Below are positions 3,678-47,353 of a stretch of 64,000 nt of DNA, in pieces. Every line of letters begins with the position of its first letter. Positions within the stretch are counted from its first letter, which is position 1. This DNA comes from an uncultured Alphaproteobacteria bacterium (GTDB taxonomy: Bacteria > Pseudomonadota > Alphaproteobacteria > SP197): contig CALSLK010000016.1 of NCBI GenBank assembly GCA_943787175.1, forward strand, positions 34,649 through 98,648. The letters run 5' to 3'. The notes beneath the pieces are model-generated. The model saw only the letters and a list, made by a program, of their open reading frames with translations, ran no database searches and was not told where the DNA came from. A program made the translations under genes and the position numbers.

Positions 3678-3712
3678 CGCCCAACCCATCCAACAGACCT
3701 GAGGAGAGAACC

Positions 3713-3913
3713 ATGAGCTTTCTGGTTCCCAAATCCAATCCTGTGCCACCGCCTCGGGTGCCACAGGTCAACGACGAAGAAGCGAACAGAGCCGCTGCCG
3801 AAGCACGTGCACGTGAGCGCAAACGGCGCGGCACTCTGGCGAGTGTCCTGACGAGCGGCCAGGGCGTGGCTTCGAATGCACCGGTACAAAGAAAAACCCT
3901 GCTGGGCGAATAG
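3713..3913 (+). CDS. Small phage virion-associated protein (66 aa)
   Basis: Strong RBS GAGGAG; Pro-rich N-terminus and RKTLLG C-terminus, typical of small genes between TerL and portal in podovirus-like phages. Confidence 0.6.
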   Translation: MSFLVPKSNPVPPPRVPQVNDEEANRAAAEARARERKRRGTLASVLTSGQGVASNAPVQRKTLLGE

Positions 3914-3941
3914 GCCAGCGTCGATATCTGGAGACAACACG

Positions 3942-4247
3942 ATGAGTATTGCGCGGACCACTGCTGATTTGACTGCAGAGAACAGCTTTAGCGATCCAAT
4001 CCGTCTAACCGGTCGATTCAACTTTCTGCTGACAGGAAGCTTCAGCGCAACGGCGCGTTTGCAGCGCTCGTTTGAAGATCCAGCCGGCACGCCGGCCTGG
4101 CACGACGTGGGTGATGCCTTTGGCAACACGGCCTATTCAGGCCCGGTAGCGTTTGTGGGCGATGAGCCCGAAGGTGCCTGGTACCGTTTCGGCGTTGAGG
4201 CTGGAGACTATACCTCTGGAACTATCGTAGGACGGTTGAGTCAATGA
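3942..4247 (+). CDS. Hypothetical phage protein (beta-rich, ~101 aa)
   Basis: RBS GGAG upstream of ATG 3942; ATGA overlap with the next gene. Confidence 0.6.
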   Translation: MSIARTTADLTAENSFSDPIRLTGRFNFLLTGSFSATARLQRSFEDPAGTPAWHDVGDAFGNTAYSGPVAFVGDEPEGAWYRFGVEAGDYTSGTIVGRLSQ

Positions 4248-5615: not shown

Positions 5616-7280
5616 ATGACATCACTGGCAGACACTGTGCTGGCGCGCCAGCAGGAACTGGCGGCTGAGCGCTAGACGTGGGAGCACGCCTGGACCGACA
5701 TCGCCGATTTCGTGCTGCCGCGTCGCGCGAGCTTCACGAGTCAGCCGGAACCGGGTGCGGCGCGGGTGAAGGGTGGGCGTGTGTTTGATTCGACCGCGAT
5801 CCATGCCAACGAACTGCTGGCAGCAGGCCTGCACGGTATGCTGACCAACCCGGCGGAGCGCTGGTTTTCGCTGAAGCTGACGGGCGGTGGAGATCAGGAC
5901 GGGGCGGATGTGACACGCTGGCTTGAAGAGGTAGAGCGGCGCATGCAGAGCGTCTTTTCGAGCCCCACAAGCCGTTTTGCCCCGGCCATACACGAGCTTT
6001 ACCTGGACCTGGGCGCGTTCGGCACCGCAGCCATGTTTGTGGGCGAGCGCCTGGGCGAGGCGGGGCATGTGGCGCCGGGCGGAATTCTGTTCCGCACCTA
6101 TCACCTGGCCGAAATCTATCCCAGCGAAGGGGCGTTCGGGCAGGTCGATACGGTTTATCGCCGGTTCTCCTGGAGTGCACGCCAGATGGTGGAACGCTGG
6201 GGGCAAGAGCGCGTTAGCGAGGCTGTGCAGCGGGCCGTTTCGGCAAACCCTGAGAAAACCTTTGAGGTTGTCCATGGCGTGTTTCCCCGGCGTGAGCGAA
6301 CGGGCGCACCGGGCACCTGGAAACCCTGGGCCAGCGTCTATGTGGAGGCCGCCAGCCACCATGTGCTGGAAGATGGCGGGTTCGACGATTTTCCCTATCT
6401 GGTGCCGCGCTGGGCCAAGGTGCCAGGTGAACGCTTCGGACGCTCGCCTGCATGGACCATGCTGCCAGATATCAAGATGCTGAACGCGATGTCCAAGACC
6501 GTGATCAAGGCCGCCCAGAAGGTGGTTGATCCGCCGTTGCTGGTGGCTGATGACGGGGTGATCCAGCCCGTAACCACCGTACCGGGAGGCCTGAATTATG
6601 GCGGGGTTGATCCGGGCGGGCGCCAGTTGATCCAGCCGCTGACGACCGGCGCGCGCATTGATATTGGCCTGGATATGATGGAGCAGCGGCGCGGCGCGAT
6701 CCGTGATGCGTTCTTTGCCGCGCTGATGCAAACGCCCGAATCGCCCCAGCGCACCGCCACTCAAGTATTGCAGGAAACCGAGGAGCGCATGCGCCTGATG
6801 TCGCCTGTGCTGGGCCGCTTGCAGAGCGAACTGTTGGGCCCGCTGGTGCGCCGTGTGTTCAACCTTCTCAAAACCGCAGGCCAGCTTCCCGCACCGCCGC
6901 TTTCGGTGCTGGGGCGCAGGCTGGATGTGGATTACGTCTCACCCATTGTGCGTGCGCAACGGGCCAGCGAAATGCTGGGCGTGACGCGCACCTTTGAAGC
7001 CGTGGTGCCCTTTGCCCAGATGGAACCCGGCGTATGGGACATCTTTGACCTGGAAGCCCTGGCCCGACGCGCGGCCGATGTGAACGGCGTGCCTGCCGCC
7101 ACGCTGAGGAGCGAAGCCGAAGTGGCGCGCCGCCGCGCCGAACGTGAAGCAGAGGCAGTCCAGGCCGCCGATGCGCTGGCCCAACGCGCCGGTGCGCCCG
7201 GTGGCGGTGCTGAAATCCCGGGGGCAGCCCTGCCGCCGGGACTGGTGGGATTGATGGGAGGATTGCCCAATGTTGGATGA
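5616..7280 (+). pseudogene. T7-type portal (head-to-tail connector) with in-frame TAG at 5673-5675
   Basis: ATG 5616 is in frame with ORF 5712..7280 and reads MTSLADTVLARQQELAAER*TWEHAWTDIADFVLPRR. Portal motifs YLVPRWAKVPGERFGRSPA and TATQV...EERMRLMSPVLGRL present. Confidence 0.85.
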
Positions 7281-7542
7281 CGTGAGATTGCCGGGCTTTG
7301 CGCGCCGCCGTCGCCGGGCCGATTACCGCCAGCTTTTTGAAGGCCTGGAAGGCCGGCGTGTACTGGCCGATCTCTATTGCTTCTGCGGCATGGCAAGTCC
7401 CAGCTTTGTGCCGGGACGGCCCGATGAGACCGCCTTCAACGAAGGCAAGCGCCGCGTCTTCCTGCGCATTGCCGGGTTCATGGAGCTGGATGACGAACGT
7501 ATCCGCACCATGGCGGGCGATACCGGCGAAGAGATTGTTTGA
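7270..7542 (+). CDS. Bbp19-like phage head protein
   Basis: YRQLFEGLEGRRVLADL...TAFNEGKRRVFLRI, directly after the portal as in Bbp19-family genes. Confidence 0.75.
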   Translation: MLDDVRLPGFARRRRRADYRQLFEGLEGRRVLADLYCFCGMASPSFVPGRPDETAFNEGKRRVFLRIAGFMELDDERIRTMAGDTGEEIV

Positions 7543-7649
7543 TTGAGCCCTCAGGCCTGCGGTCTTTTTCTGAAACCGGCTGTTCACGAATGAACACAGG
7601 GGATCGGCTCGCTGGGCCGGACCCCTTCTGCTGTGCATGGAGTAAATCG

Positions 7650-8447
7650 ATGGCACGCAACAACGAGACGTTTGGGCGGGTGAGTACGCCTAGTGCCGGC
7701 GGGTCGGGTGCTGCGACCACGGTGTTTGGCGGCACGATCAACCCGGTGGCCCAGCAGCGGATGAACCAGCGCCAATTGGGTGGGCAACTGCGCGATCCCG
7801 GCGAACCGGGCCTGTTGGGGTCAGGAACCGCACGATCCCAACCAGATCATCATCGGGGATGACTGGCCCGGTGAGCCGCTGGATACGCCCCAGCCCCAGA
7901 CGCCGGAGATGGCGCGGGTCTCGGCCCTGCGCCACGCGGCGTTCCGCACCGGGGCGGAGCTGTCCCTGCTGTCGGGACTGGAGACGGTGAAGGCCCGGAC
8001 CTTCGGCAACCCTGATCTGGACGACAGCGAGGGCCGTCAGCCGGTTCCGCCAGAATGCCGCGTTGCTGACCCGTGATGCGGTGGACGGCATGGCCCGCGC
8101 GTTCGGCTCGCCCGAGGACGGGCTGGAGATGCCCACGCGCGCGGTGCTCGAAGACATCGTCGAAGGTGTGGCTTCGGATGGGGCGCGTACGCGTGCCCGT
8201 GCGCTGGAGGAGAAGGCGCTGGACGTCCTGGAAGCGGGTGCCGATGACCTGCTGGCACAGATCCGCAGCGCACCGGACCTTGCCGAGGGCTACGCCCATC
8301 ACCGATGTTGAGGGTGGCGCACATCACGTGCAGGTCTATCGCTCACCAGGTGCGTCGACCGACTTCGCGGTGATCTTTGACAAGATTGCGGGCGATTGGT
8401 GTGCGGTTTCCTCGATGGAATTGCCCAAGCTGGGTGAAGCAGCATGA
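7650..8447 (+). pseudogene. Hypothetical phage gene split over four frames
   Basis: Consecutive overlapping ORF pieces (7650..7862, 7780..8076, 8063..8311, distal part of 8073..8447) join into one ~265-aa frame with three frameshifts; RBS TGGAG before ATG 7650. Confidence 0.5.
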
Positions 8448-42407: not shown

Positions 42408-43358
42408 ATGAATCCTGAACTCGCTATCGATATTCGCGGTCTCAAGAAGACCTATGGCAAGGGCCCCAACGCCAAGGAAGCGCTCAAGGGCGTTGATCTG
42501 GATGTGCGCCGGGGCTCATTTTTTGGCCTGCTGGGCCCCAACGGAGCCGGCAAGTCGACCATGATCAACATTCTGGCGGGCCTTGTGGTCAAGACGGCCG
42601 GCGAAGCCGATATCTGGGGCTGGGATATTGCGCGCAATCCGCGTGAAGCCAAGCGGGCCATTGGTGTGGTGCCTCAGGAACTCAATATAGATCCCTTCTT
42701 CTCCCCGCGTGAGGCGCTCGAGCTGCAGGCGGGCCTTTATGGTGTGCCGAAAAAGGCGCGCCGTACCGACGAGATCCTGAATGCTGTTGGTCTGACTGAA
42801 CAGGCAGACAGCTATGCCCGCAGTCTTTCGGGAGGCATGCGCCGCAGGCTGCTGGTTGCCAAGGCAATGGTCCATAATCCGCCTGTAATCGTCCTTGATG
42901 AGCCGACGGCTGGCGTTGATGTGGAGTTGCGCCGCACCTTCTGGACCTACATTCGCGGGCTCAACGAAGAAGGTGTGACCATTCTGCTCACGACTCACTA
43001 TCTGGAAGAGGCAGAGCGCTTTTGTGACGAGATTGCCATCATCGATCATGGCGAAGTGGTTGCGCGGGACACAACAGAAGGCCTGAAACGACGCCTTGAT
43101 CGCAAAACACTGACGATCAGGTTCGATCAGCGTCTTGACGCTATTCCGGAATCTCTGTCTGGGCTTGATTGCAAACTGACTCAGCATGGCCGTTTACAGA
43201 TCCGCTATCGTTCCAGCGAAGCGCATCTCGGCACGGTTCTGGGCCAGGTCCATCAGGCCGGTTTGACGATTGCCGACCTTTCGACGACCGAAGGTGATCT
43301 TGAGGATGTCTTTGTCGCGCTGACCGGCGATAACAATCCAGCTGATGCGGCCGAATAA
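42408..43358 (+). CDS. ABC transporter ATP-binding protein (YadG-like)
   Basis: GPNGAGKST, LSGGM, LDEPT. Confidence 0.9.
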   Translation: MNPELAIDIRGLKKTYGKGPNAKEALKGVDLDVRRGSFFGLLGPNGAGKSTMINILAGLVVKTAGEADIWGWDIARNPREAKRAIGVVPQELNIDPFFSPREALELQAGLYGVPKKARRTDEILNAVGLTEQADSYARSLSGGMRRRLLVAKAMVHNPPVIVLDEPTAGVDVELRRTFWTYIRGLNEEGVTILLTTHYLEEAERFCDEIAIIDHGEVVARDTTEGLKRRLDRKTLTIRFDQRLDAIPESLSGLDCKLTQHGRLQIRYRSSEAHLGTVLGQVHQAGLTIADLSTTEGDLEDVFVALTGDNNPADAAE

Positions 43359-43864
43359 TGGAGCGCTATCGAACTTCAATCACGAGTCCGATCGGTGTTG
43401 TGTGGATGGTGATCGCCAATGGGGCACTGGAGATACTGGATTTCGCCGACGATGACAGCACGCGCCTGGACGCCTTCATGGCCCGGCACTACCCCGACGG
43501 CTTGCCGCCGGAAAGTAGAGACACCACGGGAATTGCTTCTGGCATCACGGCCTACTTCGACGGTGATTTGGCGGCAATCGACCAGATTCCGGCCAACCCC
43601 AGGGGAACGCTCTTCCAGCAAGGCGTCTGGAAGACTTTGCGCAAGATTCCCAGTGGTCAGACGATCGCCTACAAAGAATTGGCCTCTCGGGCAGGCCGGC
43701 CAAAGGCAGTCCGTGCTGCCGGTGCCGCCAATGGCCAGAATCCCGTTTCAATCGTCGTTCCCTGCCATCGTGTGATCGGGTCGGACGGCTCACTTACGGG
43801 TTACGGCGGTGGTTTGTTGCGCAAGCAATGGTTGCTGCAGCACGAGGGTGCGCTCTGCTACTAG
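43358..43864 (+). CDS. ogt: Methylated-DNA--protein-cysteine methyltransferase
   Basis: PCHRV active site; RAAGAANGQNP. Confidence 0.9.
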   Translation: MERYRTSITSPIGVVWMVIANGALEILDFADDDSTRLDAFMARHYPDGLPPESRDTTGIASGITAYFDGDLAAIDQIPANPRGTLFQQGVWKTLRKIPSGQTIAYKELASRAGRPKAVRAAGAANGQNPVSIVVPCHRVIGSDGSLTGYGGGLLRKQWLLQHEGALCY

Positions 43865-43983
43865 TTCAGTCTGGCCGGCAAAAACACCATGGAATGAGCC
43901 ATTTTTGACTTTTCCCCGAGCTTCATTTTGGTATGTTTGAGGCGAGCGCCTGGATGGGGCTATAGACTAACACGGGGATTTAC

Positions 43984-44331
43984 ATGATCGAGAAAGACGT
44001 TGTTGGCGGGCTATCTAGCTTGGTTAACGCCAGAAAACTGACGGTCGAAGCCTATTTGCGCCAGTGTGCCTATCTGGGTGTTTCGATTTCTGCCGCACTG
44101 GTCGCCATTGGCGCGACACCTCCGGCGCAAGCCTCAACCGATACGGCTCTGGATACGCTGGAACGCGTCGTTCCGGCATCGGTCGCCATCTAGATCCAGC
44201 AGCTTGGTGAATCCGCGGCAACGGGCGCGGAAACCGACCTTGCTCAGTGGTATGACTGGGGAGATTGGGGCGATTGGGGCGACTGGGTCGACTGGGGAGA
44301 TTGGGGCGACTGGGGTGACTGGTGGAACTGA
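43984..44331 (+). pseudogene. RiPP precursor paralog 1, (WxD)9 core, in-frame TAG at 44191-44193
   Basis: Reading through the TAG gives ...[49 protein letters not shown]; leader homologous to paralog 2. Confidence 0.75.
44248..44328 (+). repeat. 9-bp coding tandem repeat, 9 units (TGG-NNN-GAY)
   Basis: Read directly from the sequence. Confidence 0.95.
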
Positions 44332-44383
44332 TCCCGATCCAGTGATGTCAGTTTTCTGACTCCTAAAATTTGTGACGACCATC

Positions 44384-44422
44384 ACGCCCGTGGCGCTACA
44401 TGCGCCGCGGGCGTAGGTTTTT
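44384..44422 (+). terminator. Terminator-like hairpin after precursor 1
   Basis: ACGCCCGTGGCGC/GCGCCGCGGGCGT stem followed by a T-tract. Confidence 0.5.
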
Positions 44423-44750
44423 CCGGTTCCCGGCGTGAAGAGCACAAGTAACGCGAAACAATTGGAGCCCGCCGGCAACGGCTTGTTCCGGGGGATAGAG
44501 GGAAAATCATGGTTGCGTTCACGGCACGAGAATTTGCGACCAGGTCACGGTTTTGCCCGGTTTCGCTTTCGATGCAGATTGCGGGTCGTCTTGGGCTCCA
44601 ACATTAACCATACTGTGCGATGACTGATAGTCGGAAGTCCGCTATCGGGGGCAATGACGGAATGTGGATGGCGATGCGGAACTATTCGGATCACGCCGCA
44701 GATCAACAACCAACGTCTGGGTCGTAAGACCAAGAACCACGGGGATTAAG

Positions 44751-45293
44751 ATGATTGAGAAAAGCATCGTTACTAACCTTTCTGGCCTGGTGAAGGAGAA
44801 GAAACTCTCCGTCCCTGCCTATCTGAAGCAATGTGCCTATCTGGGCATTTCGCTCGGTCTTGCAACAGCCGCCATTGGCATTGTTGCCAAGGCGGAAGCT
44901 TCGACCGGCGACAGCAAGACAGCGACCATGTCCGCGCTTGCCAACATCGTCTCGGCCAATGAGGCCGGTGACATTGCCAGCATCCTGCACGAAAGCGGTG
45001 TTGCCGGCGCCGAAACCGACCTCGCCCAATGGTACGACTGGGGTGACTGGGTCGATTGGGGCGACTGGGGTGATTGGTATGATTGGGCGGATTGGGGCGA
45101 CTGGGGCGACTGGGGTGACTGGGTCGACTGGGCTGACTGGTCCGATTGGTACAACTGGGATGACTGGGGCGACTGGGGTGACTGGTACGATTGGGCGGAC
45201 TGGGGTGACTGGGCCGACTGGGGTGACTGGGCCGACTGGGGTGACTGGGTCGACTGGGGTGACTGGGGTGACTGGGGCGATTGGTGGAACTGA
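44751..45293 (+). CDS. RiPP precursor paralog 2, 93-aa leader plus (WxD)29 core (GrrA/OscA-like architecture)
   Basis: ATG 44751 after GGGGA; hydrophobic N-terminal segment with AEA; GAETDLAQ junction; 87-aa core of 29 W-x-D/N triplets; rSAM gene downstream. Confidence 0.8.
45030..45290 (+). repeat. 9-bp coding tandem repeat, 29 units (TGG-NNN-GAY)
   Basis: 261 nt; every first codon is TGG. Confidence 0.95.
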
Positions 45294-45390
45294 TCGCGTA
45301 CCCCGCGAACGTCTGACCGGATTTGATCCGGCCTTAGCGAACAAGACAGCTGCCTGATCCGGCAGTTGAAGCTGACAAGACGATATGCAG

Positions 45391-45424
45391 CCGGAACGGT
45401 TTGACGACCGTTGAGCCGTTCCGG
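45391..45424 (+). promoter_or_regulatory. Intergenic hairpin between precursor and maturase
   Basis: CCGGAACGG...CCGTTCCGG stem without a U-tract; may stabilise precursor mRNA (inference). Confidence 0.45.
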
Positions 45425-45453
45425 TGTGCGTATGCGTACGGAGAAACTTTGCC

Positions 45454-46704
45454 ATGACACAAGTCGCATCAGAGCAGCAGACAACATCTGCGCCAAAGCC
45501 CAAGAAAAAACGGTTGCCGCCTCACAGCGTGGGCCCTTTGAACCTGCTGGTCCTGCAGCCGACACCGTTCTGCAATCTCGATTGCGCCTATTGTTATCTG
45601 CCCGGACGCACCAAAAAGGACCGTATGCCGATCGAGACGGCCGAAAAGTCCATTGTGCGCGCGATGGAATCAGGCCTGGTGGCCAAGAAATTCTCCATTG
45701 TCTGGCACGCCGGCGAACCGCTGGTGATGGAAAAGGACTGGTACCGCGAAGCCGACAAGCTGGTGCAGAAGCACTGCAAGGGCGTCGAGGTCACACACAA
45801 CTTTCAGACCAATGCCGTGCTGGTGACCGATTCCTGGTGCGATCTTTTCAAGTCCATGAACACCCGCATGGGTGTCAGCATCGACGGGCCCCAGCACATT
45901 CATGATGCCTATCGTAAGACACGGGCTGGTAAAGGCACGCACAAGTCGGTCATGAAGGGCGTTGAGTGTCTGCACAAGAATGACATTCCATTCCACGTCA
46001 TTGCTGTGGTGACCAAGGATTTCCTTCAGGATTATGAAGCCGCACTCGACTTCTTCGAGGACGTCGGCATGACCAGTGTTGGTTTCAATGTCGAGGAATT
46101 CGAGGGCAATCATGAAGATACCTCGCTCGATCACAACGCGGGAACACGCCATCTCTTCCGCGAATTCACGCGTGAATGTTACAAGCGCCATAGCGCTGGT
46201 CGATTGAACATCCGTGAAGTGCGCGAATACGAAAAGTTCATTCAGCATGCCGACAAGCCGCGCCTCATGAAGACGCAGCAGACGGTGCCGTTCCGTATCA
46301 TCACGGTCGGCCATGACGGCGACTTCTCATCCTTCTCGCCGGAACTGCATGCCATGGAAATGAACGGTGAGCCGTTTGTCTTCGGCAACGTTCACGACAA
46401 CGCCTATCTTGACGCTTTCGCCAATCCGATGTTTGCGCGTTACATGAACGAGATCATCGAGGGCTATAGCGCGTGCAAGAAATCGTGTGCCTTCTTCGAT
46501 GTCTGTGCCGGCGGTTCGCCGGGCAACAAGCAGTTCGAGCTGGGTACGATGGCTGGAACCGAAACCCTGTTCTGTGATTATCGCGTCAAGGAAACCGTCA
46601 CCATCCTGCGTGACGAGATGGGCCTGGATCCCATTGTTGATGATCATCCAGCCCTGATGCCACAGGCTTCAGCGGCTGCTGCAGAGTTCAGCAAGACCCG
46701 ATAA
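45454..46704 (+). CDS. Radical SAM/SPASM peptide maturase, GrrM/OscB-like (cyclophane-forming)
   Basis: LLVLQPTPFCNLDCAYCYLP (CxxxCxxC), WHAGEPL, VSIDGP, SFSPEL, SPASM CKKSCAFFDVCAGGSPGNK...ETLFC. Confidence 0.85.
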   Translation: MTQVASEQQTTSAPKPKKKRLPPHSVGPLNLLVLQPTPFCNLDCAYCYLPGRTKKDRMPIETAEKSIVRAMESGLVAKKFSIVWHAGEPLVMEKDWYREADKLVQKHCKGVEVTHNFQTNAVLVTDSWCDLFKSMNTRMGVSIDGPQHIHDAYRKTRAGKGTHKSVMKGVECLHKNDIPFHVIAVVTKDFLQDYEAALDFFEDVGMTSVGFNVEEFEGNHEDTSLDHNAGTRHLFREFTRECYKRHSAGRLNIREVREYEKFIQHADKPRLMKTQQTVPFRIITVGHDGDFSSFSPELHAMEMNGEPFVFGNVHDNAYLDAFANPMFARYMNEIIEGYSACKKSCAFFDVCAGGSPGNKQFELGTMAGTETLFCDYRVKETVTILRDEMGLDPIVDDHPALMPQASAAAAEFSKTR

Positions 46705-46722
46705 TCAGACTTGAATGCAAGT

Positions 46723-46760
46723 ATCCCGGCGGCGCGTCCTGCGCCTGCCGGGATTTTTTT
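46723..46760 (+). terminator. Intrinsic terminator ending the rSAM operon
   Basis: ATCCCGGC...GCCGGGAT stem followed by a T-tract. Confidence 0.8.
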
Positions 46761-46766
46761 GTGTTT

Positions 46767-47138
46767 CTAGCGCAGAAGCGGCCATGGCGAACGGAAGTAA
46801 GTCAGTCCTTCGAACATGACTCCGTCATCGCAGGTCTTGATCAACGCAGTTCCTTCAGCCGCTGTGCCCTTCAGGACCCACCAGTACCATTCAGTCAGAA
46901 TACCGTCCTTGTCCTGAATGGTGCGATCGGTCATCTCGAAATCAAAGCTGCCACCAAGCGCAGCGGCTCGCTTTGGCCAGACTGGCATATACGCCACCAA
47001 CATGTTGGCAGTAACGGGTTTGGGGTCCACGGGGTCGTCAAATCTGAAATCCCCCGTGATCGATGCCATGAGTTTTTCGGGATCTGCATGATCCCAACCT
47101 TCTATGTAGCGTGCGCGATGGGCTTCACGTGGTGACAT
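46767..47138 (-). CDS. SnoaL/NTF2-like protein
   Basis: YIEGWDHADPEKLMASITGDFRFDDP pattern. Confidence 0.6.
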   Translation of the reverse strand: MSPREAHRARYIEGWDHADPEKLMASITGDFRFDDPVDPKPVTANMLVAYMPVWPKRAAALGGSFDFEMTDRTIQDKDGILTEWYWWVLKGTAAEGTALIKTCDDGVMFEGLTYFRSPWPLLR

Positions 47139-47276
47139 GGCCGTGTTCCTGAAGTTTGGTGATCCCCGTAAGATTGATGATCTCGCGCAGCCTGTCCATG
47201 GTTGGACAGGCTGGATCTACTCCATCACTCTGCTTGTTCCGGCATGCGTTCCGCCGTATGGTCCGCGCCGCTCAGC

Positions 47277-47353
<77 letters not shown>

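Follow-up and report, generated by a model that had tools for sequence, protein, structure and literature searches.

Cyanobacterial triceptides made by enzymes that form three-residue cyclophanes are represented by the OscA/OscB system, which is the same as GrrA/GrrM and is recognized by two NCBIfam models, TIGR04260 for the precursor (GrrA/OscA1; cut-off, 31 bits) and TIGR04261 for the enzyme (cut-off, 310 bits). OscB is reported to join C7 of tryptophan to the C-beta of asparagine or aspartate, and Trp-x-Asp is a reported OscB substrate motif (PMC11002830). OscB and Gly-rich precursors are the subject of a 2024 paper that is mentioned, as a citation, in PMC11851443. Here we analyzed a 64,000-nucleotide stretch of an uncultured Alphaproteobacteria bacterium (SP197; CALSLK010000016.1), referred to below as the window, whose positions serve as coordinates. 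Three codirectional genes, grrA1, grrA2, and grrM, are found there between ogt, which encodes a methylated-DNA-protein-cysteine methyltransferase (43358..43864, + strand), and a tRNA-Arg(CCG) gene (47277..47353, +), both of which lie outside the system and form the left and right boundaries of a 3.4-kb cassette. Most probably, the three genes make up a minimal GrrA/GrrM (OscA/OscB-type) cassette for a triceptide, a peptide that is made by ribosomes and modified after translation (RiPP).

The grrA2 precursor and its GrrM-family enzyme

The precursor gene grrA2 (44751..45293, +) encodes 180 amino acids, divided into a 93-amino-acid leader that ends in GAETDLAQ (44751..45029) and an 87-amino-acid core (45030..45293, stop codon included). 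The core consists of 29 consecutive triplets, in which position 1 is W throughout (29 of 29), position 3 is D (27) or N (2), and position 2 is G (14), A (5), Y (4), V (3), or, once each, S, D, and W; these triplets are the predicted Trp-to-C-beta cross-link sites. Translation and counting reproduced exactly the figures given in the initial annotation of this locus, namely, both lengths, the 29 triplets, the 30 Trp and 28 Asp residues, and the lack of Lys and Arg in the core. As encoded, the product is strongly acidic, with 28 carboxylates, and Trp rich.

The radical S-adenosylmethionine (SAM)/SPASM maturase encoded by grrM (45454..46704, +; 416 amino acids) belongs to the GrrM/OscB family. Its sequence scored 369.1 bits with TIGR04261, with profile positions 1 to 360 of 363 aligned, which bears out the earlier description of it as a GrrM/OscB-like radical SAM enzyme. 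The second-best model was AmcB (NF041718), with 302.7 bits over a full-length alignment and a cut-off of 425, and the third-best was the anaerobic sulfatase-maturating enzyme (anSME; TIGR03942), with 168.3 bits and a cut-off of 349.45; the clustering with sulfatase maturases that had been named as a possible objection was not found. All remaining peptide-maturase models gave grrM lower scores than anSME did. Pfam Radical_SAM matches the protein at 7e-19, the CX3CX2C motif is formed by C40, C44, and C47, and the C-terminal cysteines 341, 345, 351, and 374 align with cysteines of a cyanobacterial GrrM whose score is 555 bits. NCBI gives a protein with 79% identity the name [quoted passage not shown] Homologues number in the thousands and are spread over many phyla; in a tree built from 120 members of the family, grrM falls into a clade of eight rows (100% support; stem length, 0.82) that stands beside a few other proteobacterial sequences and apart from cyanobacterial GrrM. 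The window genome contains one grrM and two precursor copies.

When a collection of 5.8 billion proteins was queried with GrrA2, two close relatives were recovered, together with a set of proteins of 104 to 133 amino acids, one of which is assigned by NCBI to a cyanobacterium (Synechococcales). Proteins of this set have a classical signal peptide and a helical region before their W-x-D core. P0004, of the cyanobacterial group, carries the NCBI name "GrrA/OscA1 family cyclophane-containing rSAM-modified RiPP" and scores 32.7 bits with TIGR04260, and its gene lies directly upstream of the 555-bit GrrM. The junction AQWYDWGDW is common to the window precursor and P0003 to P0014, and phmmer joins the window precursor to the cyanobacterial group with an E value of 5e-14 to P0004. 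Since P0004 passes TIGR04260 and adjoins a 555-bit GrrM, back-to-back W-x-D arrays are the canonical substrate of the GrrA/GrrM system. The initial annotation had regarded the perfect Asp-based repeat as an undescribed family; this has to be given up, because cyanobacterial GrrA/OscA1 proteins are themselves back-to-back W-x-D arrays with an equal junction.

By leader alignment, hydropathy, and AlphaFold2 modeling, the grrA2 leader is divided into a conserved 27-residue N-terminal segment (residues 1 to 27), a hydrophobic stretch that it precedes (residues 28 to 46; mean Kyte-Doolittle hydropathy, ~2), the sequence AxA|ST (residues 48 to 52), a helical pro-region, and the junction ETDLAQ. In the alignment of alphaproteobacterial relatives, the conserved pattern opens with M-I-E-K and proceeds through the hydrophobic stretch to A-x-A-S-T, which is conserved in all alphaproteobacterial copies. 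A weaker form of the N-terminal segment also occurs in the precursor of locus L023, which has six F/W-x-N motifs, and in locus L025. The grrA2 leader matched no Pfam or NCBIfam model. AlphaFold2 predicted five short helices with moderate confidence (predicted local distance difference test [pLDDT], 67.7), and a Foldseek search of this model against the PDB returned nothing below an E value of 4. In L025, the window type of N-terminal leader is part of an 81-amino-acid gene (3704-3949) that sits 50 bp upstream of a GrrM-clade enzyme with 64% identity to that of the window; this gene has no W-x-D array, ends in PDPSLFILIWI, and may have a different or truncated core.

Array length and distribution of the cassette

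Precursor-enzyme loci were compared between the window and L001, L002, L004 (genome G017), and L019 (genome G027). The 29 contiguous motifs of grrA2 compare with 25 in P0001, 26 in L002, 37 in L001, 47 in L019 (here W-x-D/N/E), and 67 in L004. Among the 162 proteins fetched from two precursor searches, the mode is 8 to 10 motifs, and the maximum outside the alphaproteobacterial clade is 18. The initial annotation had credited known triceptides with a few rings, which was an understatement, as the family typically has 8 to 12 contiguous motifs and reaches 18. With the 299-amino-acid precursor of L004 as the query, P0001 was the only match among proteins of 165 to 525 amino acids; the L004 precursor itself was not among the matches to its own query in the protein collection. 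At the same locus (6273-8201), the frame of the radical SAM gene is open backwards across the entire 67-motif array, giving an open reading frame of 642 amino acids. Arrays of this kind leave open frames, so that gene callers can fuse or misplace genes, as in L004; annotators should be warned that a precursor of this type can readily be overlooked or joined to the frame of the enzyme.

GrrM above the cut-off was found in 5 of the 23 genomes sampled from the genus, and in all 5 the precursor adjoins the radical SAM gene; the expectation that (WxD)n precursors co-occur with the enzyme is thus confirmed, in that the two are adjacent in every related genome that has the enzyme. A sixth genome, G023 (L020; G023:C1:3403000-3414000), has at the window's site a radical SAM gene in four fragments with a TAG codon, together with a frameshifted grrA1 remnant. 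Precursor and enzyme decay together in this genome. The window, G015, G009, and G023 all have the cassette immediately downstream of ogt. In G010 and G016 (L030 and L031), which lack it, only 80 to 130 bp separate ogt from tRNA-Arg(CCG), compared with 3.4 kb in the window (43865-47276). In G017 and G027, the cassette is found at other sites, and in G017 it adjoins a transposase-like gene. No direct repeats or att-like duplications were found flanking the cassette. The empty sites in sister genomes and the differently placed copies of G017 and G027 show the cassette to be an accessory presence/absence unit that has been gained, moved, and lost.

The short paralog grrA1 (43984..44331, +) has a leader of the grrA2 kind and a frame that continues into a (WxD)9 core, as the initial annotation had noticed; the gene is not intact, since an in-frame TAG at codon 70 (44191..44193, +) splits the leader from the core. 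This amber codon aligns with Glu (GAA) in a relative, and an intact orthologue in another assembly, P0002, has 133 amino acids and 15 triplets. In L002, the grrA1 copy carries a TAA at Glu76 (L002 5293-5295), six codons beyond the site of the TAG in the window, with the core again remaining in frame; the L002 core also carries a W-to-C change. The TAG at Glu70 and the TAA at Glu76 are two independent nonsense mutations, and we read grrA1 as a paralog that is undergoing loss. As it stands, grrA1 is a probable pseudogene, or else would need read-through. We also weighed programmed read-through of the TAG and judged it unlikely, as a relative has another stop (TAA) at another codon and another genome has frameshifts.

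Several predicted RNA structures punctuate the cassette (z-scores compare folding energy with that of shuffled sequences). After grrA1, a strong, terminator-like hairpin with a 13-bp stem, 11 pairs of which are G-C, is followed by U5 (44384..44414, +; -33.8 kcal/mol; z = -4.95). Between grrA2 and grrM lie three hairpins without a U-run (45294..45380, +; -30.2 kcal/mol; z = -2.9), for which partial attenuation or mRNA processing is possible, and then a GGAGA-type ribosome-binding site that precedes grrM. An intrinsic terminator closes the unit (46722..46758, +; -30.4 kcal/mol; z = -5.2), with a 13-bp G+C-rich stem at approximately 46722-46751 and U7. An Rfam scan of the cassette found no RNA element besides the flanking tRNA. 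The cassette holds no transporter gene and no protease gene. Just past the terminator and convergent with the unit, a gene on the opposite strand (46767..47138, -) encodes a SnoaL/NTF2-like protein of 123 amino acids that matches Pfam SnoaL_2 below the cut-off (E = 3.4e-5) and is present in L002 and not in L001. It was rejected as a partner of the system, being absent from the L001 locus, on the opposite strand, and beyond the terminator.

Predicted maturation and alternative explanations

The cyclophane mechanism proposed in the initial annotation, in which Trp at position 1 is linked to residue 3, is well supported by homology, through membership of the enzyme in TIGR04261 and the precedent of OscB. 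By analogy with OscB, maturation would begin with the 180-amino-acid product of grrA2, whose reading frame and conservation are established, and the N-terminal portion of the leader, to judge from its conservation, probably serves in recognition by the enzyme. In the cytoplasm, GrrM would act on the Asp or Asn at position 3, removing a hydrogen from its C-beta, and would bond this carbon to the indole of the position-1 Trp, at C7 in the case of OscB. Each three-residue cyclophane ring would lower the mass by 2 Da, and the back-to-back motifs would allow up to 29 contiguous rings.

The hydrophobic stretch and AxA|ST may constitute a Sec signal peptide, by which the modified pro-peptide would be exported without a dedicated transporter or protease. 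Residues 28 to 46 together with AxA|ST resemble a Sec signal whose N-region is long, classical signal peptides are seen in the cyanobacterial GrrA proteins recovered with GrrA2, and the cassette encodes neither protease nor transporter; for these reasons, an order of events in which stapling in the cytoplasm is followed by Sec export and cleavage by signal peptidase is suggested, although we regard the export step as evenly poised between acceptance and rejection. A more far-reaching proposal, which we put forward as speculative and rather doubtful, is that the GrrA/GrrM systems of this genus have given up small peptides for a protein-sized, fully stapled product, whose 29 to 67 contiguous Trp-Asp/Asn rings form a rigid polyanionic rod, exported by Sec by way of a leader doubling as the signal peptide and with a structural, surface, or cation-binding role in place of an antibiotic one, its length being tuned by a rapidly changing copy number (25, 26, 29, 37, 47, and 67). 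The structural, surface, or metal-binding role raised in the initial annotation is likewise speculative.

Several observations weigh against parts of this scheme. The precursor model TIGR04260 gave no match to the window precursor and its alphaproteobacterial relatives, even at an E value of ≤10, and Pfam SPASM reached only 13.4 bits on grrM, which is below its cut-off. Because grrM shares only 36% identity with the canonical cyanobacterial GrrM and has a long branch in the tree, the position on the indole ring, and even the outcome of the reaction, could differ from those of OscB. As to export, the AlphaFold2 model, of moderate confidence, breaks the hydrophobic stretch into short helices in place of one long helix, within a small helical leader, and the equivalent stretch in the more distant L023 relative is much less hydrophobic.

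A different objection would be that the WxD frame is not translated at all and represents a noncoding 9-bp tandem repeat that is open in several frames. The repeat does keep other frames, including some of the opposite strand, open over long distances, and the radical SAM frame of G017 is open through its array. However, the 9-bp period shows only 76% conservation in the DNA of the array, and codon spelling is varied (for Asp, 20 GAC and 8 GAT; for Gly, 9 GGT and 5 GGC). The conserved 93-amino-acid leader is in frame with the W-x-D/N array, behind a start context shared by grrA1 and grrA2, CACGGGGATT-N2-ATG (in full, CACGGGGATT-N2-ATGATYGAGAAA). Orthologues keep W and D/N unchanged but differ in position 2 and copy number, and the protein family recurs in cyanobacteria. 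The W-x-D/N repeat is therefore genuine coding sequence, beyond a DNA repeat artifact; the other open frames across the array are shadows of the repeat, and we give the noncoding explanation next to no credence.

Granted that grrA2 is translated, its product might still be an ordinary acidic repeat protein, secreted or anchored in the membrane, of a cation-binding kind, for example, which stays unmodified and has the radical SAM gene as a mere neighbor. The signal-peptide-like leader, the protein-sized product with 87 to 200 amino acids of repeats, and a cassette without protease or transporter would all fit such a protein, but precursor and radical SAM gene are found together at no fewer than two genomic sites of the genus (that is, at least two) and decay jointly in G023, and both core and junction match known GrrM substrates, which makes this explanation improbable. 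Only slightly less improbable is an enzyme that does not form cyclophanes and instead oxidizes Asp/Asn side chains in the manner of formylglycine or aminomalonate formation, or acts like an anSME on some other substrate. The anSME model is the third best for grrM at 168 bits, and the families are related; yet this score is far under the cut-off of 349, whereas TIGR04261 is above its own, in every relative grrM directly adjoins a W-x-D/N array, and pure Asp oxidation would not explain the invariant Trp at position 1. We prefer to read the locus as a GrrA/GrrM triceptide cassette.

Comparison with known systems

Several features are shared by the window locus and cyanobacterial GrrA/GrrM: the order of precursor and then radical SAM gene, the back-to-back W-x-D/N core, the leader-core junction (D/E-L...), and a hydrophobic segment, possibly signal-like in the window precursor, followed by a helical pro-region. 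In contrast to the cyanobacterial systems, the host is an alphaproteobacterium, the leader lies outside TIGR04260 and has the additional conserved 27-amino-acid N-terminal segment, the arrays of the clade have 25 to 67 motifs compared with 8 to 12 (maximum, 18) elsewhere, and the enzyme, at 36% identity to the cyanobacterial one, belongs to its own clade. Position 2 of the motif is Gly rich in the window, whereas in the relatives from G017 and G027 it is acidic or polar (D/E/T/S/Y). Moreover, no gene stands behind the radical SAM gene in the window, while the cyanobacterial locus, L023, and L024 each have one. For the companion gene of L023, the nearest outgroup, no match was found in the window genome, in a search that had no positive control and is accordingly weak.

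Two further observations concern the wider family. Behind the cyanobacterial GrrM of L021, a gene (6824-7936) that is cut short by the contig end encodes a protein whose C-terminal part is very acidic and contains Trp (DDDWDEDGEWSD...DWPDPDLDDWEDWEAD) and which matched no family. P0031 and P0047 contain Tyr arrays (Y-x-D/N; for example, YSDYYSNYSDYYNYSDY) after a hydrophobic N-terminal segment and may be Tyr analogues of the GrrA-type precursor.

Among other enzymes, AmcB aligns with grrM over its full length and is its second-best model; grrM stays below the cut-off of this model, so that it is not an equivalog, and a search on AmcB within the papers available gave nothing relevant. The other triceptide maturases XyeB/XncB, FxsB/MscB, and YhhB, together with DarE/DynA for darobactin and dynobactin, share with grrM the SPASM/anSME-related superfamily and form aromatic-to-C-beta cross-links on three-residue motifs, but grrM scores far below their cut-offs, and their precursors have one to few motifs in place of long unbroken arrays. 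The anSME family has a homologous fold and Cys pattern, but the window has no sulfatase context and does have an adjoining precursor gene.

The Trp-to-C-beta cyclophane chemistry on W-x-D/N motifs is thus already known, as is the repeat-type precursor, and the locus is no new class. What is new is a separate alphaproteobacterial clade, present in 5 of the genus's 23 genomes, whose arrays have 25 to 67 motifs, with a conserved leader outside TIGR04260, no companion, protease, or transporter genes, and a 3.4-kb cassette that sister genomes lack or have in decayed form. Its leader is of a type that current annotation models miss. As a two-gene cassette without helpers, it is a compact test case for whether rings can be contiguous over ~90 to 200 residues and whether GrrA-type precursors are exported by Sec. 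With arrays that surpass three- to sixfold the length of all others among 1.8 billion representative proteins, the alphaproteobacterial clade is the extreme of the family.

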